The notes beneath the pieces are model-generated. The model worked only from the letters and a program-made list of their open reading frames with translations. It ran no database searches and was not told the origin of the DNA. From a virus (Duplodnaviria; Caudoviricetes), in the IMG/VR virus record IMGVR_UViG_3300028833_000058: a stretch of DNA of 64,000 nt; one strand, given 5' to 3'. The position numbers and the translations under genes are program-made. Within the stretch, counting starts at the first letter, position 1, and the number at the start of each line of letters is the position of its first letter. Positions 14,121 to 33,528 of this stretch are shown in pieces.

Positions 14121-14626
14121 TTAATTTCTCCAAAATCTTTATGTGAAACAATCATGTCTTCAAATTCAAGTAACTTTGTCTCTTTTATTCTGCTATACAT
14201 GTTCTTTATGACATCTTCTGGGACAAATCTACCACCATTTTCTCCACGTTTAATGTTGTTTCTTAAACAATCTTCCAAAAGCATATCGGAGAAATCTACA
14301 ATAGTAAAGTTAATTGTTGGGTTTATACCATTCATAATTCTATATTCTTTTAGAATTGATTTTCTGGATATAAAAGTAGCATCAATTACAGTTATCTTAT
14401 TGTTTTCTAATGATTTTTTCAATCTTTCGTGAACTATCTTCCATATTTTACATTCGAAAGTATTTCCCCACTCTTCTTTCTTTGACTTAAATTCATCCCT
14501 TATGTCATCTGGACAAATTACACACGTGTTAGAATCAGAAAAATGTTTAGCCACAAATGTACTTTTACCACAACCAGGTATTCCATGTGTTAAAACTAAA
14601 TGTCTTTTTTCATCATTAAATGTCAT
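14117..14626 (-). CDS. polynucleotide kinase (AAA_33 P-loop kinase)
   Basis: GIPGCGKST, CPDDIR, IDAT, RxVPEDVI. Confidence 0.88.
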   Translation of the reverse strand: MTFNDEKRHLVLTHGIPGCGKSTFVAKHFSDSNTCVICPDDIRDEFKSKKEEWGNTFECKIWKIVHERLKKSLENNKITVIDATFISRKSILKEYRIMNGINPTINFTIVDFSDMLLEDCLRNNIKRGENGGRFVPEDVIKNMYSRIKETKLLEFEDMIVSHKDFGEIK

Positions 14627-19949: not shown

Positions 19950-20103
19950 ATCTTTTTCCTTTATGGTTAATGGGTTCAGAATGGTTACTGAACATGTCTT
20001 TTACAATTCATCTAACAAGTTAGATGACAGAAATAAATTTACATCTATTTCTGTCATATTATAGAACTTATTTTATTTTATCCACAAAGAAAATTTATTA
20101 GTT

Positions 20104-20775
20104 TTAAAATTTCATCTTTCGACCTTTTTTCCAGCCTTGAGCTACAAATTGGTCTAAAAATTCTTTTTTTATACTTTTATTTTGTTTTAATTCGTCATTG
20201 TATACCCAACAATGACCATAGTTTGAATTTAAATTCCCTTTTTGACGAATTGAATTTTTTATAGCTATTTTCTTCTTTGTTTCTTCTGTTAAATGTTTTC
20301 CTTTCATTGGGTTTTCATGTGTTCTATAGTATTCTTTAAGTCCGTTTGATATTCTTTCTATGTATTCGGAATATTCTTTTTGTGTCATTGATGTCCAAAA
20401 TTTCTTATTTCCAATGATACATGGGTGATTTTTTCCATATTCAATCCAGTTGTTTTTCGCTTTTATAGATTGGATTTCATGATTGTTACAACAATAATCC
20501 CATCCACCTTCTCCACCAACTTTTATGTTATATGTATCAACTCTTTTTATAAATTCTTCATCGACAAGTTCTTTTTCTTTTTGATTCATTTCTTCTTCAC
20601 TCTTACATTCAAATAAAATTTCTTTTTTAAAATTGTTTAATCCATACTTTTTGAATGCTTCAAAAAGTATTTTTCCAGAACCCATGTATTCATCATTTAT
20701 CTTATCAGTTTTATGTTTTCCAATGTAAATTTTATTGTTTAAAACGTTTGTTATTTTATATATTAAAAAGTACAT
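20104..20775 (-). CDS. GIY-YIG homing endonuclease with NUMOD3 (SegB-like)
   Basis: IYKITN...KIYIGKH, YMGSG, YNIKVGG, NPMKGKHLTEETKKKI; start at ATG 20775 after AAGGAG; follows the tRNA array. Confidence 0.9.
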   Translation of the reverse strand: MYFLIYKITNVLNNKIYIGKHKTDKINDEYMGSGKILFEAFKKYGLNNFKKEILFECKSEEEMNQKEKELVDEEFIKRVDTYNIKVGGEGGWDYCCNNHEIQSIKAKNNWIEYGKNHPCIIGNKKFWTSMTQKEYSEYIERISNGLKEYYRTHENPMKGKHLTEETKKKIAIKNSIRQKGNLNSNYGHCWVYNDELKQNKSIKKEFLDQFVAQGWKKGRKMKF

Positions 20776-20823
20776 AACTGTCTCCTTATGTACTAGAACT
20801 TTTTTGTACACAAATTTTTGAAA

Positions 20824-20898
20824 TGGCACAGGATGGTTAGAATCGAACTACCATCTTTCGGGTTGGAGCCGAATATTTTACCATTAAACTAATCCTGC
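20824..20898 (-). tRNA. tRNA-Trp(CCA)
   Basis: TTCGG-CT CCA AC-CCGAA; CCA end. Confidence 0.85.
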
Positions 20899-20903
20899 AT
20901 CAA

Positions 20904-20981
20904 TGGGGTGGTCGGTGAGGATTTGAACCCACATTCACTAGAACCACAATCTAGGGCTTTAACCAATTAAGCTACGACCAC
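20904..20981 (-). tRNA. tRNA-His(GTG)
   Basis: CTAGA-TT GTG GT-TCTAG; C73, CCA end. Confidence 0.9.
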
Positions 20982-21026
20982 AAGAATATACCACATTACT
21001 GATATATGCTTCTAGTCGCAAAAAAA

Positions 21027-21100
21027 TGGCAGAGGTTGACTGACTCGAACAATCATCTTTGGTTTTGGAGACCAGTGTTCTACCTTTGAACTAAACCTCC
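21027..21100 (-). tRNA. tRNA-Trp(CCA)
   Basis: TGGT-CT CCA AA-ACCA; CCA end. Confidence 0.9.
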
Positions 21101-21102
21101 GT

Positions 21103-21177
21103 TGGAGCGACTCATGAGAATTGAACTCATATCTCTAGTTTGGAAGACTAGCATAATAGCCATTATACGAGAATCGC
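21103..21177 (-). tRNA. tRNA-Gly(TCC)
   Basis: CTAGT-CT TCC AA-ACTAG; U73, CCA end. Confidence 0.92.
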
Positions 21178-21179
21178 AT

Positions 21180-21253
21180 TGGAGAACCGCACAGGAGTCT
21201 AACCTGCCTAATTCGGGTTGCAGCCGAACACATAAACGCTCTGTCAACGGTCC
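21180..21253 (-). tRNA. tRNA-Cys(GCA)
   Basis: TTCGG-CT GCA AC-CCGAA; U73, CCA end. Confidence 0.85.
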
Positions 21254-21255
21254 AT

Positions 21256-21333
21256 TGGTGGCAATAACTTGAATCGAACAAGTAACTTCATCCTTATGAG
21301 AGATGCGTTCTAACCAAATTGAACTATATTGCC
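21256..21333 (-). tRNA. tRNA-Met(CAT), probably elongator
   Basis: CATCT-CT CAT AA-GGATG; paired G1-C72. Confidence 0.85.
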
Positions 21334-21336
21334 ATT

Positions 21337-21412
21337 TGGTGAAGATGGTGAGAATCGAACTCACACTCCCCTGATTAAAAGTCAGGTGCTTTACCGATTA
21401 AGCTACATCTTC
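21337..21412 (-). tRNA. tRNA-Lys(TTT)
   Basis: CCTGA-CT TTT AA-TCAGG; CCA end. Confidence 0.93.
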
Positions 21413-21414
21413 AA

Positions 21415-21490
21415 TGGTGGATACCCCAAGAATCGAACTCGGTCCTTCTGTTCTTCAGACAGACGTACGCACCAGCTATACCAGATATCC
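21415..21490 (-). tRNA. tRNA-Phe(GAA)
   Basis: TCTGT-CT GAA GA-ACAGA; CCA end. Confidence 0.9.
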
Positions 21491-21492
21491 AT

Positions 21493-21571
21493 TGGTGGAG
21501 AATGTGAGTTTTGAACTCACCTGAATTTCTCGGTGCAAACGAGATGACCACCCCAAGCAGTCCCATTCCCC
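21493..21571 (-). tRNA. tRNA-Ala(TGC)
   Basis: TCTCG-TT TGC AC-CGAGA; G3:U70; CCA end. Confidence 0.9.
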
Positions 21572-21594
21572 ACGAAATTTATAATATATACCTA

Positions 21595-21637
21595 AAAATA
21601 AGAAAAACCCCCGAAACTTTTTATTTTTTCGGAGGTT
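21595..21637 (-). terminator. attenuator terminator in front of tRNA array A
   Basis: AACCTCCGAAA-loop-TTTCGGGGGTT followed by TTTCTTATTTT. Confidence 0.85.
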
Positions 21638-21676
21638 GTACAATTTTTTACTTAGAGCCAAGAAATAAAGTTTTAG

Positions 21677-21754
21677 TTAATAGTCGACACCTCCGTCAGT
21701 TTTACCTGCGAATCCAAACATGTGCCAACATTTCTTAACTAATCTATTCATCAT
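21677..21754 (-). CDS. leader (attenuator) peptide A, MMNRLVKKCWHMFGFAGKTDGGVDY
   Basis: AGGAG RBS; 25 codons; KKCWHMFGFAGK matches the downstream tRNA set; CGGAGGT at 21695-21689 complementary to the terminator 5' arm. Confidence 0.85.
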   Translation of the reverse strand: MMNRLVKKCWHMFGFAGKTDGGVDY

Positions 21755-21787
21755 ATTAAATAGAACTCCTTTTTCTTTACTTCTTCT

Positions 21788-21816
21788 CTTATATCAAACT
21801 TTTTTCATAAAGTCAA
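21788..21816 (-). promoter_or_regulatory. sigma70-type promoter of leader A and tRNA array A
   Basis: TTGACT-17 bp-TATAAG with extended TG. Confidence 0.75.
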
Positions 21817-21836
21817 GTATTTTTTTTTAAGATTTT

Positions 21837-21964
21837 TGTCAAAGAGAATTTTTCAAACAGATTTTTGCAGCAGGACTTGAACCTGCATAGCTTTTCAGCT
21901 GTTGTTTTTTGAGAACAATGTGTATACCATTTCACGATGCAACTGTTTGACCGCTTCTTTGACA
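21837..21964 (-). ncRNA. Y-RNA-like RNA carrying a tRNA-Leu(CAA)-like body
   Basis: GTCAAAG/CTTTGAC stem, AG-C-GGT bulged-C helix, then D arm, TTGTT-CT CAA AA-AACAA, long variable arm, GCAGG-TTCAAGT-CCTGC. Confidence 0.8.
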
Positions 21965-22067
21965 TAATAACTAAATGAAAAACTTTACGTATTTTTCTTG
22001 AGTACTTCTCAACAACGGTTAGTCAACATTGGAGAGGGGGTATGAAGCCCTAGAAGTAATTAGTTTG

Positions 22068-22188
22068 TGGTAAAGAGTATAAATAGAACAGGTTTATTGC
22101 AGTAGGACTTGAACCTACAATCCTTTGATTAAAAATCAAATGTTTTATCCACTTAAACGATGCAACTGTTCCAACCGCTTCTTTACCA
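22068..22188 (-). ncRNA. Y-RNA-like RNA carrying a tRNA-Lys(TTT)-like body
   Basis: GGTAAAG/CTTTACC stem, same AAGCGGT helix, D arm, TTTGA-TT TTT AA-TCAAA, GTAGG-TTCAAGT-CCTAC. Confidence 0.8.
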
Positions 22189-22199
22189 AAATTTATGCT

Positions 22200-22273
22200 C
22201 GAAGAGAATATTTAGAAATTGTGTATTTAGTCAACAACCCTTAGACGATGTAACAATTTCAACCGCTTCTTCG
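22200..22273 (-). ncRNA. short Y-RNA-like RNA
   Basis: CGAAG-AAGCGGT-GAAATTG...CAATTTC-ATTCT-CTTCG; shares TRCATCG with the other copies. Confidence 0.7.
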
Positions 22274-22282
22274 CTCTAATAA

Positions 22283-22597
22283 TTATTCACACAAATCAGA
22301 GTTTGTACATGAGTTGTATGGCTTACGACTATATGAAACTTCTTCATAAGTTTTTGGCTCATAAACTGTAGTATAAGTAACATCTTTGTAAATTACTTCT
22401 ACTGGTTTAGAAATAGTGTAACTTGTTGAACAAGTGTTACATTCATTGTTGTAAGAACGATATGTGTTGTAAGAAGGTTTAGTGTAGTTTACAACAGGTT
22501 TTTGTTCTTCAACTTTTGGAGTAACAATTACTTCTTCTGTTTCAGCACAAGTACAAGCACTTAATAAAATAGAGCATAACATTAAAACTTTTTTCAT
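22283..22597 (-). CDS. putative lipoprotein
   Basis: Signal peptide MKKVLMLCSILLSAC with lipobox; Tyr/Thr/Cys-rich. Confidence 0.7.
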   Translation of the reverse strand: MKKVLMLCSILLSACTCAETEEVIVTPKVEEQKPVVNYTKPSYNTYRSYNNECNTCSTSYTISKPVEVIYKDVTYTTVYEPKTYEEVSYSRKPYNSCTNSDLCE

Positions 22598-22629
22598 GTC
22601 AATTACCTTTCGAACGTTGTTGATAAGTT

Positions 22630-22721
22630 AGTGAGGATTAGAGTATCATAAAGATTTGTTATTTCTAAAGCAGATTACATGTCTGGACTCGATGTAAATC
22701 TTTAACCGCTTAATCCTCACT
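22630..22721 (-). ncRNA. Y-RNA-like RNA directly after the Ro60 stop codon
   Basis: AGTGAGGATT-AAGCGGT-AAAGATTT...AAATCTTT-ATACTCT-AATCCTCACT. Confidence 0.75.
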
Positions 22722-22724
22722 TTC

Positions 22725-24353
22725 TTAGTCATTTACCGATGTCTTTATTTTAATAGAACTCTTCTTTTCTACTTTTTCATCTGTAATATTATCCATTCTA
22801 TCCCAAATGTCAATTAAAGTTTTAGCATAAATGGATTCTTTACCAGTCCAACCAGTTAGAATACTTGTTCTGTATTCATTTTCTGGCATTACATTGTTGT
22901 CATAGCCAGCTGTTTGAATAGAAAAGATATTAACTTTTGCATTAACCTTTCTTCTATATTCTTGAACAAGCTTTAAGACATCAATGAATTTTGAATTGTT
23001 GTATAAATAATCACGATAATGATGTTCATTTAATCCATACAATCCACCATGACCAGCTTGCATATCAGAGTAGATGAAAATGTTATCGTAATGTATCTTT
23101 TTCTTTATAGCTTCGTCAAAGAATAACCATATACCATTTTCAGTACTAGCACCGATGTTGTGTGAATGTCTACATTGAATTCTATCTAATTGAGACAGTA
23201 CACCATCTCTTTTGTTGACTGATTCGATTTCTAACCTATCTCCAAAGATTCCAACATACCCTTCATCAGAATTAATAGCTGTCATAACTGAAGATAAGTT
23301 ATCAATTTCAGCAACTTTAGTAGAACCATATTCAGTAGTTAATGCACCCCATGCTGAACCAGAGTTATCCGACAAGCAGATGGTCTTACCCTTTAACTTA
23401 GGGAAATTGTCCATTGCTCTATCTATACATCTGTTCAAGCTTTCTACAATAGCAGATTCACCCTTAACACGTGGATTAGAAGTTTGAATAGCCTTTAATG
23501 CAGACCAATATCTAAATGGAAATTGCTTACCCTTTTCGACACCGTTTTCAAGCATTTCAAGAACTTGCTTTCTGACATCTTCATCTTCAATCTCAGTAAA
23601 AATACCACGTAAGTTTCTTAAAAGAGCCATATGTGGGACATAAGTTGCTTGTAAAATTTCTGTCCAAGTTTTACCAGCACTTCTTAACTTTTCCCAAGTA
23701 GATTCTTCTTCTGTAACTTCAATAGTACCAGACTTCATAAGTTCATCAATGTCTTCAGAGTGAGCATGACAAATACGAACTAAGTCGATGATTTTAGCAC
23801 TTGTCTTGTACTTAGCCAATTGATATTTTTTAGTTACAGATAATTTGTTAGCCCATGCTCTTTTTAAGATAGATGGTAATTTACTTTTGGAGCCATTGAA
23901 GAACATCCACAATTCGAACTGATTCCAAATGTCAGTAGGAATGTTGATAACTTCTTCAATGCAACTACGCATGAACACCTTGTTTTCTTCATTAAAAGCT
24001 TTTCTACCATCATACATTACAGCTCTAACCATAATCAAAGCTGGGTTTAAACGCATATTGTATTCATATCTTAACTTTTTAGCAAGATTTAATACACCTT
24101 CGAAATCATAAGCTAAAGCATTGTCACAAGCTTCAACAAAAGTTGCTGTTGTACCAGATAACTCTTTGTTGTTAGCACCATCGTTTTTGTAATATGACTT
24201 TTCACCAAAAATAGATGACGCAGCAACCATTTCTAGCTCTAGCAATGGGTTAGTTTTATAGGAAATACCATTCATGAAGTTTACAACTTGCTCATCTTTG
24301 TGCTTGTTGTAATCTGCTTCAGATTTCTTTGCATAACCTGAGAATTTAGACAT
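22725..24353 (-). CDS. TROVE-domain RNA-binding protein (Ro60/Rsr homolog)
   Basis: SIFGExSYY, YQLAKY, TWExLRS, MALLRNLR, QFPFRY, vWA MIDAS DNSGS, YSDMQ. Confidence 0.93.
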   Translation of the reverse strand: MSKFSGYAKKSEADYNKHKDEQVVNFMNGISYKTNPLLELEMVAASSIFGEKSYYKNDGANNKELSGTTATFVEACDNALAYDFEGVLNLAKKLRYEYNMRLNPALIMVRAVMYDGRKAFNEENKVFMRSCIEEVINIPTDIWNQFELWMFFNGSKSKLPSILKRAWANKLSVTKKYQLAKYKTSAKIIDLVRICHAHSEDIDELMKSGTIEVTEEESTWEKLRSAGKTWTEILQATYVPHMALLRNLRGIFTEIEDEDVRKQVLEMLENGVEKGKQFPFRYWSALKAIQTSNPRVKGESAIVESLNRCIDRAMDNFPKLKGKTICLSDNSGSAWGALTTEYGSTKVAEIDNLSSVMTAINSDEGYVGIFGDRLEIESVNKRDGVLSQLDRIQCRHSHNIGASTENGIWLFFDEAIKKKIHYDNIFIYSDMQAGHGGLYGLNEHHYRDYLYNNSKFIDVLKLVQEYRRKVNAKVNIFSIQTAGYDNNVMPENEYRTSILTGWTGKESIYAKTLIDIWDRMDNITDEKVEKKSSIKIKTSVND

Positions 24354-24448
24354 TTTAGTTCCTTCCTTTCTTTCTCGATTTGTTGTGATTATATTTTCAA
24401 TTTTTGTTAAAGTAAAGTCAATTGTTGTAATTTATACACTTTAGCTGA

Positions 24449-24634
24449 TTAGTTAAGCACTAACTTGTTGAATTTAATGTTTAAATAATCAGCTATAGCT
24501 TTTTTCCAATTGAACTTCTTTACTTTCTTTTTCTTATTCGGCACTACTTTATGTTGAAATAGTGCATTGTGGTAAAGATTGAATAACAAACATCTCTCTT
24601 CACCTGTTTTAGTTCGTTTTGTTTTCTTTTTCAT
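24449..24634 (-). CDS. small basic protein, possibly ArfA-like
   Basis: GGAG RBS; LF-x-H-KV-x-x-KK pattern recalls ribosome-rescue factor ArfA. Confidence 0.35.
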   Translation of the reverse strand: MKKKTKRTKTGEERCLLFNLYHNALFQHKVVPNKKKKVKKFNWKKAIADYLNIKFNKLVLN

Positions 24635-24826
24635 TTTATTTCTCCAAATTATTTTTAATATATTTTTTAAAATACTGACGAACTTTTTTATTGTAATCTT
24701 TAATCATAGCTTGAACAGCATTTTTGTCTCCACTACGTTTATAATCACTTTTATATTCTTCGTCAGGTTTTACATTTATGTTTTTATATCCTTTCATTTT
24801 ATTTCTCCGATAAAAAAGGGAGATTG

Positions 24827-25210
24827 TTATCTCCCGTTGTTTTTGTTACACGCTACGAAACTGCTGTACATTTCCTTGTTAATATTTATGTCCATAGTTT
24901 CAGCTCGTTCCCTCGCTTTTCTTTCATAATATTCAAATCTATCTTTTGTTAATGGATAAAAATACAAGGCTCTCGATTCCATTATTACTAACTTCTTCAA
25001 TTCCTTCTCTGATTTTTCAGCATATTCTTTACATAACATTCTAAAAAGACCGTCTTCTGTTTCTTCATCTTTTATAACGTGTCCATAATGTTTAGATAAC
25101 TTATAAGCTTGTAAATCAATGTTAGCTTGTGTTTCTATCGCTCTTTGTATGTCACCAGACAATTTGCTAAAATTAGACCCCTTTTCATCAGAAAAATGTC
25201 TATAGTCCAT
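24827..25210 (-). CDS. hypothetical protein
   Basis: ORF with upstream AGTTCTA motif. Confidence 0.6.
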   Translation of the reverse strand: MDYRHFSDEKGSNFSKLSGDIQRAIETQANIDLQAYKLSKHYGHVIKDEETEDGLFRMLCKEYAEKSEKELKKLVIMESRALYFYPLTKDRFEYYERKARERAETMDININKEMYSSFVACNKNNGR

Positions 25211-25414
25211 TGTAATAATTCCCTATATATATGTGAAGTGTAATGTATAGAACTAAAAAATCGTTTGTCCATTTTAGAATAATGACCTAGGAAATTCTAA
25301 AACTCTATGTTAATTCATACGACAGGTTTTAACATTACTAAGATGTCATGGAACTACTGGGACAATTGTACAAAAAAGTGTTTGACATTTTGTCCAATCT
25401 AGTGTATAAACTTT

Positions 25415-25723
25415 ATGTGTCAAACAACTGAACTGGACAAAGCAATGGATGTTTTACTTCGTATACTCATAATCTTTATGTTGTTATATATGGTCTATAT
25501 AACCATATCATCTATTTGGGAAGCTGGTGGTCGTACCATACTCGGAAGTATAATGTTTGTGGCCATGATGTGGGCCTTTTGTGCACTTTTAAATACAACT
25601 ATCGTACAAGCTCTTATAGCTTGTTGTTTTCTAGTTGTAATTGTCATGTTGGTACTTCAAGCTATAGCTTGTTTTCTTTCATCAATGATTAGTTATATCA
25701 ATAAGTTATTTAATCATGAATGA
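25415..25723 (+). CDS. small membrane protein
   Basis: Three hydrophobic helices; TTGACA...TATAAA promoter immediately upstream, so possibly leaderless. Confidence 0.6.
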   Translation: MCQTTELDKAMDVLLRILIIFMLLYMVYITISSIWEAGGRTILGSIMFVAMMWAFCALLNTTIVQALIACCFLVVIVMLVLQAIACFLSSMISYINKLFNHE

Positions 25724-26084
25724 AAGAATCAATAAAATCTTCTAAACTAATTTTTTCACCAGTCTCTTTGTTTGTTGCAATCTGTTTGTCAAGACGTATC
25801 ACAAACGAATCGTTAGAAAGAACATATGCACTAAGTTGTCTAAATCCTCTATCTTTAAAGAATTGTAAGATATCTAAGTAGATTTTTGTGTCTTTTGATG
25901 GTTTAATTTTGTCCATATCGACTTTACCATTTCTCCAATCGTTATACATATATTTCGGTAACCATCCAACATATTTTATGCACCGTGTACAACGAATCCC
26001 AAATATTTCAGGATGCGTCTTAGAAATAATATGTTCAAAGTGCGTAGACCCACATATAGGACATATGAATTTATCATTCTTCAT
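25710..26084 (-). CDS. zinc-ribbon protein
   Basis: CPICG...CTRC; start after GAGGA (the track extension overlaps tRNA-Gln). Confidence 0.6.
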   Translation of the reverse strand: MKNDKFICPICGSTHFEHIISKTHPEIFGIRCTRCIKYVGWLPKYMYNDWRNGKVDMDKIKPSKDTKIYLDILQFFKDRGFRQLSAYVLSNDSFVIRLDKQIATNKETGEKISLEDFIDSFIHD

Positions 26085-26105
26085 GAAACTTCCTCTCAGA
26101 TTTAG

Positions 26106-26179
26106 TGGTTTCGGGGGGTCGATTCGGACGACCATTAACGCAGTCAAAGTGCGCTATCCTACCATTAGACGACCCCGAA
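26106..26179 (-). tRNA. tRNA-Gln(TTG)
   Basis: GCGCA-CT TTG AC-TGCGT; CCA end. Confidence 0.88.
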
Positions 26180-26185
26180 ATAAGA

Positions 26186-26314
26186 CGATTGGAGGAGGAG
26201 TCGAACCTCACACAATTAAGAATTACCGTTCTTAAAATTTTCCTCTACTTCCCGTCTTCTTAATCAAACTTTCTTTCGGTAAAAATACTTATTTGACATA
26301 GTAGAGCTCCAACC
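26186..26314 (-). ncRNA. tRNA-like ncRNA with acceptor stem and T arm, copy 1
   Basis: GGTTGGAG/CTCCAATC stem, GAGG-TTCGACT-CCTC. Confidence 0.6.
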
Positions 26315-26349
26315 ATAAAAAAACAATAACTTTTTAATTGAATAGTTCA

Positions 26350-26643
26350 TCACTACCTTGTTCAGTTTGTGGTCTGGAACATATCTTCATCTTCAACATT
26401 ACTTGGCTAGATGGAATCCACTTGTTCTCTACACATTTATTACGAAAGTGCCAGAATCGAACTGGGAACTAAGATTACAACACCCATAGAAGTTATCTCA
26501 GTTTCTATCTATGCTCAATAGGGTCCAACACTATCTCACCTTCATAAATTTAGCTCGGTATTGTCATCAGCATTATCTGTTAAGATTTCACTGAATTCGG
26601 ATTCATTCAAATATACATTTCTGTATAAGTGTTCAGTTTTACC
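26350..26643 (-). mobile_element. group I intron following a tRNA-Gln(TTG) 5' half
   Basis: P AATTCAGTGAAA (26597-26586), Q AATACCGAGC, R GTGTAGAGAAC, S AAGATATGTTCC; boundaries approximate. Confidence 0.7.
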
Positions 26644-26678
26644 CAAAATCTCATGTCCTACCATTAGACGACCCCGAA
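26644..26678 (-). pseudogene. tRNA-Gln(TTG) 5' half; no matching 3' exon found
   Basis: TTCGGGGTCGTCTAATGGTAGGACATGAGATTTTG. Confidence 0.6.
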
Positions 26679-26685
26679 ATAATCA

Positions 26686-26822
26686 CGGTTGGAGGTGGAG
26701 TCGAACCACACACCACTAACATCTGCAGATATTAGAATTTCCCTCTACTTGCCGTTATCTTAATCAAACTTTCACTTCTGCAGAAGTACTCATTTGACAT
26801 ATGAAACATTAGAGCTCCAACC
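26686..26822 (-). ncRNA. tRNA-like ncRNA with acceptor stem and T arm, copy 2
   Basis: GGTTGGAG/CTCCAACC, GTGG-TTCGACT-CCAC (compensatory change versus copy 1). Confidence 0.6.
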
Positions 26823-26967
26823 ATAAAAAACAATAACTTTTTGATTGAATAGTTCATCACTACCAAACCTAAACGGAGAAGTTATTGCAGAAACTCCCTA
26901 AACGTAGGATAGGATTGATAACATTACTAAGATGCCATAGCAATAGTCCTATCACTTCAAACTAAAA

Positions 26968-27060
26968 TGGCACCCCGTAAACTGATTCGAACAGCATTCC
27001 CGTACTAATTGACTGGAGCTATAGACATTCAACTAGCGGTCACCATGACTACAACGAGGT
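26968..27060 (-). ncRNA. aberrant tRNA-like RNA
   Basis: ACCTCGT/ACGGGGT-G-CCA, CTG-TTCGAAT-CAG, no canonical anticodon loop. Confidence 0.5.
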
Positions 27061-27069
27061 ATTAAATGT

Positions 27070-27188
27070 TCTTCTTGACAAGGCTTGAACTTGTACCTAA
27101 ACCTTAGAGGGAATTGTGCTACCGCCGTTAGGGTTTAGTAAAAAGAGCTATAGTATTTACTAAATCTATCCGTTTACACTACAAGAAG
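27070..27188 (-). ncRNA. aberrant tRNA-like RNA with a large D-loop insertion
   Basis: CTTCTTG/CAAGAAG, ACAAG-TTCAAGC-CTTGT, TTTAGTAAA/TTTACTAAA hairpin in the D loop. Confidence 0.5.
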
Positions 27189-27474
27189 ATAATACTATAA
27201 ATTATTAATAAACCAATTGTGAATGTTCTGCCAAAATCCAGACTTTATAGATATCAATGTACCATATATTGCTATCAACGAAACAATTATTGAAAGTATA
27301 GATTCTACAATTTCTAATTTTTCTTTCATTTAACATATTCTCCAATTTTGTATCTTTCTAGGCTACTACTGCGCAACCCTACGACTGCTGCACCATCGTT
27401 TTACGTTCTTCGTTTACTCAGCTTGTATCGTCAATGAAAGTTCCTGAGCTGACGTTTTCCAACCTATTACAACT

Positions 27475-27554
27475 TGGCGGGGCCACATGATTTTCACACG
27501 TTATCTTGGACCTACATCCTAAGCAATCTGTTCTAGAACCAGATTTAACGCCCC
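27475..27554 (-). ncRNA. aberrant tRNA-like RNA
   Basis: GGGGC/GCCCC-G-CCA with three internal hairpins and non-canonical loops. Confidence 0.45.
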
Positions 27555-27782
27555 ATAAAAAAATCGGCAATCGGTTTTTACCCTTTATCCACTCGCTGTT
27601 CGAACTCTTTAGCGTTGGAGGGTCAGGTTACTGTTTTCTACAGCACATAGTTATTTAGGCAATTACCTCTAAATACTAACAACACGCCATCAACCTGTCT
27701 GATTATATAAGCATCAATTTAATACTTATCCGATGTACATTCATATTAAATTGTACTAGTCTATATAATCACGAATTAGAAT

Positions 27783-27868
27783 TGGTGCAAGGTGATAGAG
27801 TCGCACTACCCGAGTCCGAAGACAAGTGATTTACAGTCACTCCCGCTACTCCTACGGTATAACCTTGC
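27783..27868 (-). tRNA. tRNA-Tyr(GTA)
   Basis: AGTGA-CT GTA AA-TCACT; long variable arm; CCA end. Confidence 0.88.
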
Positions 27869-28025
27869 ATAAAAGTAATCCGATAATATCTAAATCTACA
27901 CTTACTTGGTACTAGCATGTAAAACATACTGTCCAAAGCCCCCACTTTCAATTTCTAAAGAAATAGCCGCTCGGATTAACACGGTGGGATGGATTCTACG
28001 AAAAAAGTACGTAAAATCAATGGTT

Positions 28026-28099
28026 TGGTCGAGAACGTCCGATTCGAACGGCAATCCCTCGCCCCAAACGAGGAGTGTTACCCTTACACCACGTTCTCG
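28026..28099 (-). tRNA. tRNA-Pro(TGG)
   Basis: CCTCG-TT TGG GG-CGAGG; C1-G72, CCA end. Confidence 0.85.
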
Positions 28100-28109
28100 A
28101 TGAATAAAA

Positions 28110-28186
28110 TGGTGGAACAGGAGTGACTTGAACACCCAACCTATCCGTTATGAGCGGAGAGCTCTGACCAATTGAGCTACTGTTCC
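28110..28186 (-). tRNA. tRNA(CAT), probably Ile2 (lysidine)
   Basis: TCCG-CT CAT AA-CGGA; overall resemblance to bacterial tRNA-Ile2; identity inferred. Confidence 0.8.
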
Positions 28187-28187
28187 A

Positions 28188-28706
28188 TTAAGCTTTTTTA
28201 TAAGATTTATTCTTCAATATAAAGATTATTCTGCTATGTGCAACACCAAATTTTCTAGCTAATCCACGAGTTCCGAATTCTTTATGTTTTGGAATATAAT
28301 GTTCTCTTATCCATTTAGCTTGTTCATTTGTAAGTTTTGCACCATGGTTATCTTCACCACCATGATATGTTATTAAATTATGCTTTACTGCGTGAATAGT
28401 ATTTTCTTGATTAGTACACCACTCTAAGTTATCCCAACGATTGTTTAATTTGTTTCCATCAATGTGATTTACTTGTGGTTTGTTTTCTGGATTTGGTACA
28501 AAAGCTTCAGCAACCAACCTGTGAATTTTTACACATTTACATCCACCTTTTCTACCATTTGGATATAAAGCGTATACATAATAGCCTGTCTTTCCAATTT
28601 GTTGCTTTACGTTTTTGTTAGACCTACCCTTTAGATTGCCTAGATTACTTATAAAATAACCTTGTATATCAATTTCTTTCCAAATTTCTTCTTCGATGTT
28701 TTCCAT
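28188..28706 (-). CDS. HNH homing endonuclease (NUMOD4-HNH)
   Basis: EIWKEI...YFISNLG, IHRLVAEAF, VNHIDGNKLNN...NLEW. Confidence 0.92.
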   Translation of the reverse strand: MENIEEEIWKEIDIQGYFISNLGNLKGRSNKNVKQQIGKTGYYVYALYPNGRKGGCKCVKIHRLVAEAFVPNPENKPQVNHIDGNKLNNRWDNLEWCTNQENTIHAVKHNLITYHGGEDNHGAKLTNEQAKWIREHYIPKHKEFGTRGLARKFGVAHSRIIFILKNKSYKKA

Positions 28707-28794
28707 TTACAAATTCCTATATTGTTATGACTAATTTATAGAACTATATAAATGGTGCCTATTTTTCATCGAACACAAAATTTTTATAAAAATT

Positions 28795-28866
28795 TGATTC
28801 CAACGAGATTCGAACTCGTATTACCACCGTGAAAGGGTGATGACCTAACCGTTAGTCGATGGAATC
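28795..28866 (-). tRNA. tRNA-Glu(TTC)
   Basis: TCACC-CT TTC AC-GGTGG; CCA not encoded. Confidence 0.88.
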
Positions 28867-28945
28867 ATAATAATCAACGCTTTTTGATTGCATGGTAAAA
28901 ACCACCAAACCTTATTATGGAGAAGCATTGATGAAACTCCTTGAT

Positions 28946-29022
28946 TGGCGGGAGTGACCAGTCTTGAACTGGCGACCTCCACAGTGACAGTGTGGCGTTC
29001 TGACCAACTGAACTACACCCCC
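28946..29022 (-). tRNA. tRNA-Asp(GTC)
   Basis: CCACA-CT GTC AC-TGTGG; G73, CCA end. Confidence 0.93.
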
Positions 29023-29024
29023 AT

Positions 29025-29112
29025 TGGTGGATTTGATGAGACTTGAACTCATATGGTCACAATGACCGAGGGATTTTAAGTCCCTTGCGTATACCAGTTT
29101 CGCCACAAATCC
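29025..29112 (-). tRNA. tRNA-Leu(TAA)
   Basis: AGGGA-CT TAA AA-TCCCT; long variable arm. Confidence 0.93.
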
Positions 29113-29116
29113 AAAT

Positions 29117-29191
29117 TGGCTGGGATGGAGAATTTCGAAATCTCGACCTACGGTTTAACAGACCGCCGCTCTGCCTCTGAGCTACACCCCA
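29117..29191 (-). tRNA. tRNA-Asn(GTT)
   Basis: GCGGT-CT GTT AA-ACCGT. Confidence 0.92.
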
Positions 29192-29197
29192 ATATAA

Positions 29198-29272
29198 TGG
29201 TGCCACATGAGAATTTTGCAATCCCGACCTACCGCTTACAAGGCGGTTGCTCTACTTCTGAGCTAATGTGGC
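29198..29272 (-). tRNA. tRNA-Thr(TGT)
   Basis: ACCGC-CT TGT AA-GCGGT. Confidence 0.9.
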
Positions 29273-29276
29273 ATTT

Positions 29277-29410
29277 TGGCGGGAGTGACTATATCTGTGT
29301 CATTATAAAGTCATTTAATTAACATTTTGTATCACTGAGTGTCCTACACTTTTATATATCTAGAATCAGATAGGCAAAACTCTAACTACTTTGTATTTAA
29401 CAGAACTCCC
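29277..29410 (-). ncRNA. 134-nt RNA with a tRNA-Asp-like acceptor stem and CCA but a non-tRNA interior
   Basis: GGGAGT...ACTCCC-G-CCA; 3' end matches tRNA-Asp (GTCACTCCCGCCA). Confidence 0.45.
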
Positions 29411-29417
29411 ATAATAA

Positions 29418-29494
29418 TGGCAGACCGTACAGGACTCAAACCTGTGACACCAAGCTTAGAAGGCTTGTGCTCTATTCTACTGAGCTAACGGTCT
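29418..29494 (-). tRNA. tRNA-Arg(TCT)
   Basis: CAAGC-CT TCT AA-GCTTG. Confidence 0.92.
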
Positions 29495-29820
29495 ATAAGA
29501 GTTATATAGGATAGGTAAACCAACGTATTTACCTCTTGCGTTATGGAGCAATGATTTGTTCCAATGTAATCTGGGCTCATCTATTCTTACGAGATAGACC
29601 ATCCTATATGTTCTATGGTTTGGGATGTGGAAGCGAATCCATCTTCCTTTTTGTACCCTAGGCCTGACCGATATACACTTTACAATGTATAACATCCCAA
29701 GACTTGTAGTTTTCATAACGGTCCATTTAGAGATTCTACTGAGCACTGTCCGTTATGGGAATCTGCTTTGTTAAGGAGCTCTAAATCTCTTAACCGCAGT
29801 TACTACAACCCTCTCAGCAG

Positions 29821-30225
29821 CTAATCTTTAATCTTCACGAGTTCATAAACATTAATTGGATATTTCCTTTGTTCACAATTTGCAATTTTATAAACTCTAT
29901 GTTTATCTATACCCAAAATATATTTTACGATTCTACCGATATCTTTACCAGCTTCAGCTTCTGGGTTATCAATTTTTCTTTTTACATGGTACTGATACAC
30001 ATAATCTAATGGTGTATAAGACCAATCTCTAAATTTACCTCCAACAATATCAGAAGTGGTAAATTGCTTTTTATAAGCCAAAGCTCCTTGAATCATACCA
30101 TTTATAAAAGTTGTCAATTCAGCTTGTTGCATGTAAGATAGTGATTCAAAAGCACTGGACTTTTGTATGTTAGAATTGATAATCATAGCTCTTTTCCTTT
30201 CATGTATGATTATAATGTTAAACAA
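29821..30225 (-). CDS. hypothetical protein inserted in the tRNA array
   Basis: ORF; probable start at MIINSN after GAAAGGA. Confidence 0.65.
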   Translation of the reverse strand: MFNIIIIHERKRAMIINSNIQKSSAFESLSYMQQAELTTFINGMIQGALAYKKQFTTSDIVGGKFRDWSYTPLDYVYQYHVKRKIDNPEAEAGKDIGRIVKYILGIDKHRVYKIANCEQRKYPINVYELVKIKD

Positions 30226-30280
30226 GTTTATTAAATGAGAAACAAGTTATTTAACGACCCCTGTTTCGGTTTAAGTCGAT

Positions 30281-30373
30281 TGGCGGAGAGAGTAGGATTC
30301 GAACCCACGGTGGTATATTTCACCCACGGCTGATTTCAAGTCAGCTGCAATAGACCAACTCTGCCATCTCTCC
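30281..30373 (-). tRNA. tRNA-Ser(TGA)
   Basis: GCTGA-CT TGA AA-TCAGC; long variable arm; G73. Confidence 0.93.
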
Positions 30374-30381
30374 ATGATATT

Positions 30382-30462
30382 TACAGATGGAGAGATTTGA
30401 ACTCTCACGCATTTCTGCACTGGTTCCTAAGACCAGAGTGTCTACCGTTCCACCACATCTGT
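30382..30462 (-). tRNA. tRNA-Leu(TAG)
   Basis: CTGGT-CT TAG GA-ACCAG; CCA not encoded. Confidence 0.9.
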
Positions 30463-30469
30463 ATAAATT

Positions 30470-30546
30470 TGGTACAGCTGGATAGACTCGGACTATCGAC
30501 CCCTGCCTTATCAGAGCAGTGCTCTAACCAACTGAGCTACAGCTGT
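30470..30546 (-). tRNA. tRNA-Ile(GAT)
   Basis: CTGCT-CT GAT AA-GGCAG. Confidence 0.92.
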
Positions 30547-30551
30547 ACAAA

Positions 30552-30628
30552 TGGTAGAGGTGAAGAGATTTGAACTCCTGACCCTCTCGGTGTAAACGAG
30601 ACGCTCTAACCAGCTGAGCTACACCTCT
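30552..30628 (-). tRNA. tRNA-Val(TAC)
   Basis: TCTCG-TT TAC AC-CGAGA. Confidence 0.93.
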
Positions 30629-30664
30629 ACAAAAAGTATTTCCTATTCACAATGTCATTATAAC

Positions 30665-30700
30665 TAAAATAAAAACTCGTCTTTTTATCTTTGACGAGTT
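30665..30700 (-). terminator. attenuator terminator in front of tRNA array B
   Basis: AACTCGTC-loop-GACGAGTT followed by TTTATTTT. Confidence 0.85.
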
Positions 30701-30750
30701 CCTATTTCTTTTAACTTTTTAAATGTTTTGATTAAGCAATAGCAAACTCG

Positions 30751-30813
30751 TCAGCCTTGTTCTCTAGGTTGATTATATAAATCTGAGTATGTTACTATCG
30801 TTTTAATCATCAT
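30751..30813 (-). CDS. leader (attenuator) peptide B, MMIKTIVTYSDLYNQPREQG
   Basis: GAGG RBS; 20 codons; TIVTYSDLYNQPREQ matches the downstream tRNA set; TGACGAGTT (30753-30745) over the stop codon complements the terminator 5' arm. Confidence 0.85.
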   Translation of the reverse strand: MMIKTIVTYSDLYNQPREQG

Positions 30814-30842
30814 ATTAATTAGAACCTCTTCATTGAAATTTT

Positions 30843-31127
30843 TTATATTGTACAGAATTTTTTCTTATTTGTAAAGTCTTTTTTTTCAATTTTCTTTACT
30901 TTTTTGTTAATATAGTTGATAACATCTTGAACTGTAATGAATTTTTTTGATACCTTGTCTGGTATTTCAATATCAAATTCACACTCTAAAGCCATTATAA
31001 TTTCGATTATATCCAAACTATCGGCTCCGAAATCGTCAACCAAGCTTTTAGATTTCTTGATTGCGGATTCTTTTATGTCCAAGTGTTCAGAAATGATACC
31101 TATTACTAATTTTTCAACACTCTTCAT
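30843..31127 (-). CDS. acpP: acyl carrier protein
   Basis: DDFGADSLDIIEIIMALECEFDIEIPD phosphopantetheine motif. Confidence 0.9.
   Translation of the reverse strand: MKSVEKLVIGIISEHLDIKESAIKKSKSLVDDFGADSLDIIEIIMALECEFDIEIPDKVSKKFITVQDVINYINKKVKKIEKKDFTNKKKFCTI
30847..30875 (-). promoter_or_regulatory. sigma70-type promoter of leader B and tRNA array B
   Basis: TTTACA-17 bp-TACAAT inside the ACP gene 3' end. Confidence 0.7.
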
Positions 31128-31613
31128 TCTCTCACCTTGTGAAAATTACCGATTCTTTAAGCACGTTGGGTATGCCGTCTGAATAACTGACTACTCCTTA
31201 CGTTATCATTCTCAGTTGTACGATAACAGCCCAATAGTCATATAGTTGACGTTTTGCACATAGTGGCATCTCGGTATTCCATTTGTCTTTACAGACATTC
31301 GTATATAAATTCGGCTGAAGGACTCCTGACTACCTCCAAGCAGTATATTAAGCGCATTATTCAGTCACATCCACATAAGTTAGCTACTCTTATGCTTTTA
31401 GGATGAGGAGATTGATTACTCCTAAACGGATACAGATATCAGCATTTCAACCTACGATTTGTCCGTTTCTTACGTCACTAAAGGTTGGCCAACCCTTGCT
31501 ATTTCAACCTTATGCTTCTTAATACCTGGCAACTATATAGTAAACTTTTCAGTATTATTATATATCTCTTTATTAGCCATCAACTAATTATTTAGAGAAA
31601 GCCAAATTTATAT

Positions 31614-31691
31614 TGGTTGCAGGGAATGGATTCGAACCACTGACCTCTAGGTTATGAGCCTAGCAAGCTGACCTGACTGCTCTACCCTGCT
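31614..31691 (-). tRNA. initiator tRNA-fMet(CAT)
   Basis: A1xA72 mismatch, A11:U24, CTAGG-CT CAT AA-CCTAG. Confidence 0.88.
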
Positions 31692-31990
31692 ATAAAACAA
31701 ACTTATGGGTTATTGATGTTCTATATTTGAACTATAAATAGGTGATAAAGCTATTTATTTAGGCACCTCCCCTAAAATTTTCAATATAATTGGCAGAGCG
31801 TTTAATGCGTTTTCAGGAGTTCTGCCAACAAATTTATATGTCATTTCTTTTAGGTCTACACCATTTTACCCCCTAGGCTGCTTAAGACGAATGACAAGAC
31901 TAGCAGTGTTATATCTATCCGTTTTAACAAAATAAGAATTTGGTGCCCTCTAGATATAACAGTATAGTTTGGGCGGACTATGGTTCTAAT

Positions 31991-32065
31991 TGGAGCAGAT
32001 AATGAGAATTGAACTCATATCTAAACCTTGGCAAGGTCTCATACTAACCATTGTACTATATCTGC
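31991..32065 (-). tRNA. tRNA-Gly(GCC)
   Basis: AGACC-TT GCC AA-GGTTT; U73. Confidence 0.9.
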
Positions 32066-32069
32066 GTTA

Positions 32070-32162
32070 TGGCGGATACTAAAGGATTCGAACCTTTGCG
32101 AGATGTTACCACCCCCTAACGGTTTAGCAAACCGTCCTCTTCACCAGCTTGAGTAAGTATCC
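32070..32162 (-). tRNA. tRNA-Ser(GCT)
   Basis: ACGGT-TT GCT AA-ACCGT; long variable arm. Confidence 0.92.
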
Positions 32163-32170
32163 ATAAAATG

Positions 32171-32245
32171 TTCCACCGTCAAGACTTGCACTTGAACTTG
32201 TAATCCCCCGATGGATTACTATGCTACTGTTACATCACTGGTGAA
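32171..32245 (-). ncRNA. aberrant tRNA-like RNA with enlarged anticodon arm
   Basis: TTCACC/GGTGGA, D arm, GTAATCC-ATCGGG-GGATTAC, TCAAG-TGCAAGT-CTTGA. Confidence 0.5.
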
Positions 32246-32279
32246 ACGAAAAGGAGGAAATAAACCTCCTCCAAAAAGA

Positions 32280-32594
32280 TTATTTTTTCTTCTTTTTAAT
32301 TTTCTCTTCTTTCTTCTTGAACTTAGAAGCAACCCAATTGAAGAAGCAAACGATGACGTTCCAAATCATCTTCAATGTAGAAGTAACTAAATCAATAAGA
32401 AAAGACTTAATAATTCCATAAAGACCAACTACAATAGCTTTAATCCAAGCCCAAAGAGCTTTCAAAAAACTTACAACTGGTTCTTTAATCAGATGCCAAG
32501 AAGTTGAGAATAAATCTCTAACTGCTTTCCATCCAGCAGTAGAAAAAGCTTTAACACCTTTCCACCATTCTTTTAAGATTTCTTTAAAAGTCAT
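32280..32594 (-). CDS. amphipathic Trp-periodic protein
   Basis: Roughly 11-residue aromatic periodicity; GAGGA RBS. Confidence 0.65.
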   Translation of the reverse strand: MTFKEILKEWWKGVKAFSTAGWKAVRDLFSTSWHLIKEPVVSFLKALWAWIKAIVVGLYGIIKSFLIDLVTSTLKMIWNVIVCFFNWVASKFKKKEEKIKKKKK

Positions 32595-32991
32595 ATTTTT
32601 CCTCTTATTAAAAAGAATTAAAATAACGATTGATTACTACCCTATCTGTCGTGAACGCCTTTGGCAAGGTTAGGTCAACAAAGTCTTTCGGTTATCACAG
32701 CTTACCTAAGAAAATTCCTATTAGCCTTTTGGGTGGTTGCCACTATCATCTGTGTCTTAGATTTATGTAATCAATCTTTCTGCACGACCAGAACTTGTAT
32801 ACTCCCATCTATAAGCGTTGGTACCTTACTTATAGCGCAGGTGGTCAATTCCACAAACTGAGAAGTTTGCTGTATTTGGAAATCCAAACCTTAAGCATCT
32901 GGAGTCTATTTAGTGTATCATTTCCTATTTACAATTTTATTATAACATATACTTTATAGAACATCTTTTTATTTGAGTAAAGACAAAAAAT

Positions 32992-33528
32992 TTAAATTTT
33001 TTCAAGAATCGTTGGCTTACAAGTCATAATGTCATCAAAATATATTAACGACAACACATCTTTTCTTCCTTGTCTTGTATATTTGTGATATAGAGCTTCT
33101 TTCGGGTTTATTACTACTTTATCATCACATATTTTTTCACATAGTTCAACTAATTCTTTTCTATTAACTACGTAAAATTTATTTTCTTTTCTATTGTGGA
33201 AAACTATGTAGTCTGCTTTTCCATATAACCAGCCTTTATCGCCATGAACATTGTTAAATTCTATCCATATATAGTCAGAATTAAAGTGTGAATCCATACG
33301 ACTACGTTTTTTACTGGCTTTTACATCTACTGCTACTTCTTTGTGTAACACTGGATGGTAAATAACAAAATCTATATGTTGATATTGTTCCTCTGTTGTT
33401 GCTGGTCTATATTTACGGTTATTTTCTTTTAACCAATCCTCAAATAAATCTTCTGTCTTTTTACCGACAAAAGCTGATTCTCCAAATTCATCCTTCTTGT
33501 TCACATACATTAATTTTCTGCTTGGCAA
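32992..33528 (-). CDS. PD-(D/E)XK nuclease-fold protein
   Basis: HIDF...VDVKA, WIE, GWLYGKADY. Confidence 0.7.
   Translation of the reverse strand: MPSRKLMYVNKKDEFGESAFVGKKTEDLFEDWLKENNRKYRPATTEEQYQHIDFVIYHPVLHKEVAVDVKASKKRSRMDSHFNSDYIWIEFNNVHGDKGWLYGKADYIVFHNRKENKFYVVNRKELVELCEKICDDKVVINPKEALYHKYTRQGRKDVLSLIYFDDIMTCKPTILEKI

Follow-up and report, generated by a model that had tools for sequence, protein, structure and literature searches.

An attenuator-like leader ahead of a phage tRNA array

The DNA analysed here is the IMG/VR virus record IMGVR_UViG_3300028833_000058 (Duplodnaviria; Caudoviricetes), a stretch of 64,000 nucleotides that is referred to as the window. It contains a tRNA array, array B, comprising 14 tRNA genes for 12 amino acids. 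The array is preceded by a short open reading frame (ORF), leader B, and an intrinsic terminator. The codons of leader B match the amino acids of the downstream tRNAs, and a segment complementary to the terminator overlaps the leader stop codon. Taken together, the element is probably a ribosome-mediated (leader-peptide) transcription attenuator gating the phage tRNA array. A preliminary description of the window had proposed this reading, and it was supported by orthologous leaders, compensatory changes, a paralogous leader A and independent phage lineages. All of this evidence came from sequence analysis. Positions are those of the window, and leaders, switches and tRNA genes are located on the minus strand.

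Leader B and its sensor codons

Leader B was found as described at 30813-30751 (MMIKTIVTYSDLYNQPREQG, 20 codons followed by TGA), with a promoter upstream (30875-30847) and the terminator downstream (30708-30666). Fifteen consecutive codons at 30801-30757, the sensor run TIVTYSDLYNQPREQ, were made solely of the 12 amino acids of the downstream tRNAs and included all of them, which confirmed the earlier claim. Thirteen consecutive leader codons were sufficient to cover the 12 amino acids. Across the six frames of the 64-kb window, with approximately 128,000 positions, the sensor run was the sole 15-mer equal to the 12-amino-acid set. The analytic chance of such a match is 5.5e-6 per position. 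A more liberal null accepted any array prefix of at least six amino acids with a tight cover. Small sets matched often under this null, and sets of at least 10 amino acids were matched at just two other loci of the window.

Under strict wobble rules, with Thr(TGT) counted, tRNAs of the own array could decode 15 of the 19 codons that follow the first one for start. The codon ATA is added if the CAT tRNA of the array is Ile2, and CCT could be decoded only with relaxed wobble. Purity over the whole ORF (15/19 against an expected 0.54, P = 0.024) was only modestly significant on its own, because the B set accounts for 68% of the residues in the proteins of the phage. To that extent the figures would also fit an AT-rich spacer that by chance contains a short ORF together with a repeat of the terminator arm. 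This explanation is strongly disfavoured and extremely improbable in view of the exact-cover statistic, an antiterminator duplex better than 300 of 300 shuffles, a second leader covering the complementary amino-acid set, covariation in three orthologues and the same design in several independent lineages. The cover statistic and the comparative sequence data carry the argument for an attenuator.

Terminator, antiterminator and alternative pairings

The terminator named in the preliminary description, AACTCGTC / GACGAGTT with a T-run, was located at 30700-30666. The full hairpin spans 30708-30666 and consists of the 5' arm (30708-30693, with the G/C core AACTCGTC at 30700-30693), the loop (30692-30682) and the 3' arm with the T-run (30681-30666). 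Its predicted energy was -17.2 kcal/mol for the hairpin alone. It is followed by TTTTTATTTT, and the distance to tRNA-Val is 37 nt. A 9-nt antiterminator, TGACGAGTT, had been reported over the stop codon. The motif is present there, but the true pairing is longer. The 18-nt segment 2, CTGACGAGTTTGCTATTG at 30754-30737, starts one base ahead of the stop codon, covers positions -1 to +16 relative to it and forms 15 bp with the terminator 5' arm at 30708-30693 (-17.2 kcal/mol). Shuffled sequences had a mean of -6.8 kcal/mol and none of 300 was as good.

Folding predictions for the naked RNA placed segment 1 (30809-30785, codons 2-10) in a 1:2 hairpin with segment 2, in the role of an anti-antiterminator, and in these minimum free energy structures the 1:2 hairpin and the terminator both formed. 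A 1:2-like hairpin was also predicted by folding in the three close relatives G003, G001 and G002. With a ribosome mask at the stop codon, the antiterminator was lost and the terminator alone folded. With the mask six codons ahead of the stop, the antiterminator replaced the terminator. In these models the layout follows a four-segment logic of the trp type.

The reach of a stalled ribosome was modelled with a footprint extending approximately 12 nt past the first base of the A-site codon, the figure for the bacterial ribosome. Stalls at codons 5-17 were predicted to leave the antiterminator free, Glu at codon 18 was borderline and the second Gln at codon 19 was too close. A caveat in the preliminary description, that ribosomes stalled at Arg, Glu or Gln might mask the antiterminator, applied by this measure to Glu and the second Gln but not to Arg at codon 17.

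Leader B follows array content in close relatives

Three IMG/VR contigs with both leaders were used as close relatives: G003 (locus L001), G001 (L117) and G002 (L118). The Ro60-like protein of G003 showed 84% identity to that of the window. Leader B was retained in all three as an ORF of 17-22 codons, and its composition followed the respective array. The run of the window covers 12 of the 12 amino acids of its own array. In G003, IVTYSSLDNQPEN covers 11 of 12, with Arg missing. In G002, whose array is without tRNA-Val, IETYLNSYNQPRI covers 10 of 11, with Asp missing, and GAA stands at the codon aligned with the GTA of the window. The array of G001 is without Val, Arg and Leu tRNAs, and its 13-codon run EITYSDSYNQPES comprises exactly the nine amino acids of that array. 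No hidden tRNAs were detected in the arrays of the relatives by Rfam and blastn. For Val, Arg and Leu in the four genomes, the run included the residue in 7 of the 8 cases with the tRNA and in 0 of the 4 without it, with a Fisher P of 0.010 that is only indicative because the genomes are related.

The pairing segments changed in concert. Compared with the window, G001 differs on both sides of three base pairs in the terminator and of two in the antiterminator. G002 has a different terminator, and its antiterminator matches that terminator. The sequence elements, the predicted alternative pairings and the codon-to-tRNA match of the window are conserved.

The maintenance of leader B as an ORF in four genomes would also be expected of a functional micropeptide or an otherwise translated ORF, and the hairpin, directly downstream of a protein gene region, could then be an ordinary leaky terminator or insulator after the acyl carrier protein (ACP) gene. 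The B peptides are very different between genomes, yet each stays within the amino-acid set of its own array, and unrelated peptides of other lineages obey the same rule. The antiterminator over the stop codon would be left unexplained as well. A micropeptide is a very unlikely explanation.

A paralogous leader for the remaining amino acids

Array A (21571-20824) was identified with ARAGORN and Rfam and comprises tRNAs for Ala, Phe, Lys, Met, Cys, Gly, Trp, His and Trp. It serves the eight amino acids that array B does not. The paralogous leader A (21754-21595) is composed of the ORF MMNRLVKKCWHMFGFAGKTDGGVDY at 21754-21677, an antiterminator at 21696-21688 and a terminator at 21637-21595. This architecture of ORF, antiterminator and terminator is like that of leader B and agrees with the earlier statement that both follow the same logic. 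The core KKCWHMFGFAGK was the sole 12-mer equal to the eight-amino-acid set in the six frames of the window (P = 2e-8 per position). The 12-codon core had the same residues in all four genomes, with synonymous differences only (AAG/AAA, CAC/CAT, GGA/GGC, GCA/GCC), and both flanks differed at the protein level. A change of CCTCCG to CCTCTG in the terminator was compensated in the 3' arm, and the antiterminator keeps a G-U pair. Covariation of the Gly codon with its anticodon (GGA/TCC in the window, GGC/GCC in G003) was considered and rejected, since G002 pairs GGC with TCC. For array C (Ser-GCT, Gly-GCC and Met; 32162-31614), no leader was found.

The same rule in distant lineages and in phage Atu_ph07

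Phages with 25-55% identity in the Ro60-like protein were regarded as distant relatives. They carry unrelated leaders that follow the same codon-to-array rule. The run ILPLISRPSIRRS precedes Ser-Arg-Pro-Ile-Met-Leu tRNAs and EDDLLED precedes Glu-Asp-Met-Leu tRNAs. A 35-codon leader is located ahead of 16 tRNAs; its own array can decode 31 of the 35 codons and the other two arrays 2 and 4. The match extended to isoacceptors in the relatives, with ATA accompanying Ile(TAT) and ATC/ATT accompanying Ile(GAT), TTA accompanying Leu(TAA) and CTT/CTA accompanying Leu(TAG), and AGT/AGC accompanying Ser(GCT). The survey included 23 leaders of ten leader families from a dozen phage genomes. In 23 of 23 leaders, a segment at or close to the stop codon could form a duplex with the terminator 5' arm, and the own-array decoding score was never reached in 20,000 permutations with re-paired leaders and arrays. 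No convincing leaders were found in the Rsr-linked relatives L016, L027-L029, L031 and L033, so the design is not universal.

A candidate leader was identified in Agrobacterium phage Atu_ph07, a cultured jumbo phage with the host Agrobacterium tumefaciens C58. The protein gp469 of 42 amino acids, annotated as hypothetical (NC_042013.1, 339118-339246, minus strand), contains the run RAEAAMFWYPI, which represents the nine amino acids of the nine tRNAs past its terminator (337737-338867, locus L120). The antiterminator of gp469 had a predicted energy of -18.8 kcal/mol. A term search of the Atu_ph07 genome paper gave no mention of an attenuator, leader or terminator. Other searches against cultured phages yielded nothing close to the window. 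Megablast matches of the region were confined to HNH and tRNA fragments, and neither tblastn of a group-2 leader nor blastn of leader A gave a match. A 16-mer pattern scan of viral contigs resulted in 63 matches, of which one was recognised, the contig of L001 itself.

Two further features were observed in the group-2 relatives. In L017, L021, L024 and L037, a motif TTCTTTGA(C/A)AT is located past each terminator. The flanks of the group-2 Glu/Asp/Leu leader match mainly the array that comes next downstream, whose tRNAs can decode 17 of their 29 codons.

Promoter and start region

The promoter TTTACA-17-TACAAT of the preliminary description was present at 30875-30847. This sigma-70-like sequence scored 10 of 12, was the top promoter-like site in the 13 kb scanned (20000-33000) and overlaps the 3' end of the ACP gene (31127-30843). 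The region 30828-30819 further downstream combines GAGG (30828-30825) with an overlapping GTTCTAA motif (30825-30819). GAGG had been named as the ribosome-binding site. The motif is there, but its role is uncertain because it is placed 11 nt from the ATG, the normal spacing being 5-7 nt. The region may serve either as a Shine-Dalgarno sequence at long spacing or as a promoter element of the phage.

GTTCTAW was found 5-6 nt ahead of the ATG in 8 of 8 leaders of the four genomes, and 5 nt ahead in the two leaders of the window. It was also present at further intergenic sites, 25-35 nt ahead of ordinary genes. The intergenic sites in the window are 30825, 21766, 28744, 25253, 20067, 19337, 32962, 61029 and 62999, all on the minus strand. 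GTTCTAW may be a phage-specific promoter element, and the leader mRNAs would then be nearly leaderless. In distant freshwater relatives, as in the group-2 relatives L017, L021, L024 and L037, leaders begin 6 nt past TATAAT.

Proposed mechanism

Transcription would begin at the promoter 30875-30847 or at the GTTCTAA element, and a ribosome would translate the 20-codon leader close behind the polymerase. If all sensor codons are decoded promptly, the ribosome would reach the UGA and cover segment 2 (30754-30737), upon which the terminator at 30708-30666 would fold and transcription would end ahead of tRNA-Val. A ribosome stalled anywhere within codons 5-17 (Thr Ile Val Thr Tyr Ser Asp Leu Tyr Asn Gln Pro Arg) would occupy segment 1 and leave segment 2 free. 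Free segment 2 would pair with the terminator 5' arm, and the polymerase would read through into the tRNA genes. With zero translation, 1:2 and 3:4 would both fold, resulting in termination. Since the tRNA products would relieve the stall, the circuit would regulate decoding capacity by negative feedback. The phage would resupply its tRNA set when matching tRNAs become scarce, be it through host tRNA degradation, through anticodon nucleases or in a host poor in tRNAs for AT-rich codons. From the arrangement of these elements we infer that the leader is translated, that its translation is coupled to the polymerase, in which direction and how strongly the switch responds, and what triggers it physiologically.

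Leaders A and B may together form a larger system. The two attenuators would split the full 20-amino-acid tRNA set into independently triggered circuits, 12 amino acids for B and 8 for A, and act as a tRNA-damage alarm. Cleavage or depletion of any host tRNA, for instance by anticodon nucleases or through tRNA decay in infected cells, would stall the ribosome on a leader and so activate the corresponding half of the phage set. The alarm would work beside a cassette of kinase, Rnl1-like ligase and phosphoesterase and a Ro60-like protein with tRNA-like Y RNAs. We regard this extension as tentative, with confidence somewhat short of even.

Evidence against the mechanism and a translation-dependent alternative

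Several observations weigh against a simple attenuator. Each amino acid is represented by one or two leader codons without tandem runs, so that low sensitivity to a mild shortage would be expected. Codons 18 (Glu) and 19 (the second Gln) lie too near the antiterminator to signal. Concordance between leader and array is imperfect: G003 has tRNA-Arg without an Arg codon, G002 has tRNA-Asp without an Asp codon, and G001 uses ATT with Ile(TAT) as its sole Ile tRNA. Between the B terminator and the array of G001-G003 lies a TTTACA-17-TAtAaA promoter. The attenuator would be bypassed there and would gate only part of array transcription. Unlike in these relatives, this TTTACA-17 promoter type sits upstream of the leader in the window. 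The signals for initiation are also unusual, with a gap of 11 nt between GAGG and ATG compared with 5-7 nt at neighbouring genes, and with B leaders in G001-G003 that lack a Shine-Dalgarno sequence. In the window, the distal tRNAs are preceded by an HNH gene as well as by promoter-like sites and a GTTCTAT motif, and they may be transcribed independently. Tight coupling of transcription and translation is not universal. Finally, the RNA data were assembled contigs, which show neither levels nor ends.

Part of this evidence would fit a translation-dependent switch that senses general translation capacity or the stage of infection and not a shortage of particular tRNAs, and that might act via Rho, RNA processing or transcript stability in place of competing hairpins. 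The codon match would then merely make the leader depend on the tRNAs of the phage itself. The one or two codons per amino acid, the bypass promoter past the terminator in the close relatives and the atypical, possibly leaderless initiation are in line with such a switch. It requires neither an exact cover of the amino-acid set of the array nor the loss of Val, Arg and Leu from the leader alongside their tRNAs. Moreover, 23 of 23 leaders have their antiterminator at or close to the stop, and antiterminator and terminator covary, as competition between hairpins predicts. A general-capacity switch is unlikely on this basis, and attenuation at individual sensor codons is preferred.

The available RNA contigs came from the sheep-gut metatranscriptome assemblies X3 and X4, two runs from one sample. 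One contig identical to the window spans the leader, the terminator, tRNA-Val and tRNA-Ile (X3 record 15, 30443-30823), and another spans leader A and its terminator. The bridging contig is compatible with read-through molecules but may also stem from DNA carry-over. Contig ends at 30823 and 30698 were not used as signs of transcription start or termination, since contigs show no ends and the data represent one sample. Likewise, the lack of cover over the ACP gene (30850-31283) in X3 and X4, in a stretch spanned by a DNA contig, was not used as evidence for a transcription start.

Composition of array B

The list of tRNAs given in the preliminary description held, with two qualifications. The proximal group Val(TAC), Ile(GAT), Leu(TAG) and Ser(TGA) is located at 30628-30281 and the middle group Arg(TCT), Thr(TGT), Asn(GTT), Leu(TAA), Asp(GTC) and Glu(TTC) at 29494-28794, both identified with ARAGORN and Rfam. 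Thr(TGT) at 29201-29272 was not called by ARAGORN; it was recognised by Rfam with 55.9 bits and its anticodon was read directly. The distal group (28186-26106) comprises a CAT tRNA (28110-28186), Pro(TGG), Tyr(GTA, 27783-27868) and Gln(TTG, 26106-26179), of which Tyr(GTA) was called by ARAGORN only with a lowered threshold. The CAT tRNA is probably Ile2. Its sequence is not orthologous to that of the Ile(TAT) tRNAs at the same position in the relatives, and the assignment therefore rests on position, the two other CAT tRNAs and the ATA codon.

An HNH homing-endonuclease gene (28706-28188, minus strand; PF13392, 5.7e-14) is inserted in the array, with the GTTCTAT motif at 28744-28738 just upstream of it. 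Approximately 1.6 kb of tRNA-like debris and repeats separates the distal tRNAs. The compact arrays of G001 and G003 suggest that the distal tRNAs once shared a transcript. Aberrant tRNA-shaped sequences were seen at 26200-27200 and 29275-29410, both on the minus strand. Split halves of tRNA-like sequences, a second Gln-like 5' half among them, lie within direct repeats of approximately 480 bp, and a tRNA-like gene with a CTA anticodon and a 45-nt insertion is present at 27068-27189. An element GGGAGT...ACTCCCGCCA also occurs at L001:4708-4845, just upstream of leader B of that phage.

A conserved box, AGTTATAATGACATTGTGAATAGGAAA (30665-30639, minus strand), is located between the terminator and the first tRNA and was found ahead of array B in all four related genomes. 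Its consensus is AGTTATAA(T/A)GACATTGT(G/A)AATAGGAAA, as seen at 30639-30665 (minus strand) of the window and at approximately 5075-5100 of L001. A shorter form, ATTGTAAATAGGA, is present upstream of the array C region, at approximately 32925-32945 (minus strand). The CAT tRNA of array C (31614-31691, minus strand) is initiator-like in its mismatch between A1 and A72 and in an anticodon stem rich in G. On sequence features, each of the three arrays may hold a different type of CAT tRNA, namely initiator, elongator Met and Ile2.

The phage and neighbouring genes

The phage is an uncultured sheep-gut phage. DNA near-identical to the window was present in sheep-gut metagenomes. The window has a G+C content of approximately 31% and contains 27-28 tRNA genes, every one on the minus strand (ARAGORN and Rfam). 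Among its phage-type functions are an NrdD-like reductase, a Lon-like protease, an Rnl1-like RNA ligase and an acyl carrier protein. A search with the Lon-like protease gave no clear answer regarding the host.

A metallophosphoesterase, the Rnl1-like RNA ligase (phrog_562) and a P-loop AAA_33 kinase are encoded side by side at 11897-14626 (minus strand). By their sequences the three resemble a cassette for the repair of RNA or tRNA, and no attenuator was found upstream of it. A Ro60/TROVE-like protein (PF05731, phrog_850; 22725-24353, minus strand) is followed by repeated AAGAAGCGGT...GTTGCATCGT units at 21837-22260 (minus strand). ARAGORN called tRNA-Lys(TTT) and tRNA-Leu(CAA) in the cores of these units, and Rfam gave the tRNA model only. 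Their sequence suggests Y-RNA-like RNAs with tRNA-like modules. The kinase, ligase and phosphoesterase and the Ro60-like protein beside tRNA-like RNAs would fit a lifestyle in which tRNA damage matters. Phage tRNAs in general have been proposed to counter tRNA damage, according to the available text of PMC10264068, PMC11555353 and PMC11464382.

A non-coding stretch of approximately 470 nt (31140-31610, minus strand) between tRNA-Met(CAT) and the ACP gene looks highly structured. It had no Rfam match. The stretch is included in the deepest RNA-library contigs (records 16 and 24), and contig depth cannot rank expression.

Comparison with known attenuators

Classical leader-peptide attenuators regulate amino-acid biosynthesis or aminoacylation enzymes. 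In enterobacteria, the ilvGMEDA leader carries Ile/Leu/Val codons and the thr leader Thr/Ile codons. Like the phage element, these are short translated leaders with codons for more than one amino acid, and the choice between terminator and antiterminator is set by ribosome position over four segments. They regulate biosynthetic enzymes, whereas the phage element would regulate tRNA genes, sense 12 amino acids with mostly single codons and no tandem runs, be encoded by a phage and yield a product acting directly on the sensed step, decoding. The trpL and hisL leaders have the same 1:2, 2:3 and 3:4 logic, with termination at the stop and super-attenuation without translation, states that were predicted by folding for the phage element. 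They differ in sensing a single amino acid through tandem regulatory codons, with the charged-tRNA level set by amino-acid supply. The pheST operon of E. coli (pheM leader) likewise controls a component of the translation apparatus via cognate tRNA decoding, but it is a cellular system for a single amino acid and controls phenylalanyl-tRNA synthetase, not tRNAs. T-box riboswitches of Firmicutes also switch between terminator and antiterminator in response to tRNA status, but they bind one uncharged tRNA directly and need no translation. Neither a T-box nor another non-tRNA Rfam family was detected in the whole window at gathering thresholds.

The genes downstream of leader B are 14 tRNA genes and the inserted HNH endonuclease and not enzyme genes of the classical kind. 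That these genes are tRNAs sets the element apart from the classical members. The literature searched contained no published description of leader-peptide attenuation of tRNA genes. In low-GC Gram-positive bacteria, leader-peptide attenuation is represented by the leucine-rich attenuator peptide of Staphylococcus aureus ilv-leu, as described in the available text of PMC5794164. That system differs in controlling an amino-acid biosynthesis operon and in being enriched in a single amino acid. A low-GC Gram-positive bacterium is a plausible host type for a Shine-Dalgarno-using phage with 31% G+C.

Clustered phage tRNAs have been proposed to stand in for host tRNAs lost to cleavage or depletion in infection (available text of PMC10264068, PMC11555353 and PMC11464382). 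Term searches of PMC10264068 and PMC11025619 gave no mention of attenuators, leaders or terminators. Compared with phage tRNA arrays as a counter-measure to defence, the present element would add demand-driven control.

Implications

As far as found, leader-peptide attenuation has otherwise been described only for amino-acid and synthetase genes. The simple design and the version in the cultured phage Atu_ph07 make the idea directly testable. If the attenuator operates as proposed, the controlled product would be the tRNA itself, giving a direct feedback loop on decoding, and the leader would represent a natural multivalent sensor in which 12 codon families are read through one switch. The tRNA genes of the phage would then be a demand-driven system and not constitutive baggage, which bears on the question of why phages carry tRNAs and on bacterial defences that target tRNAs.

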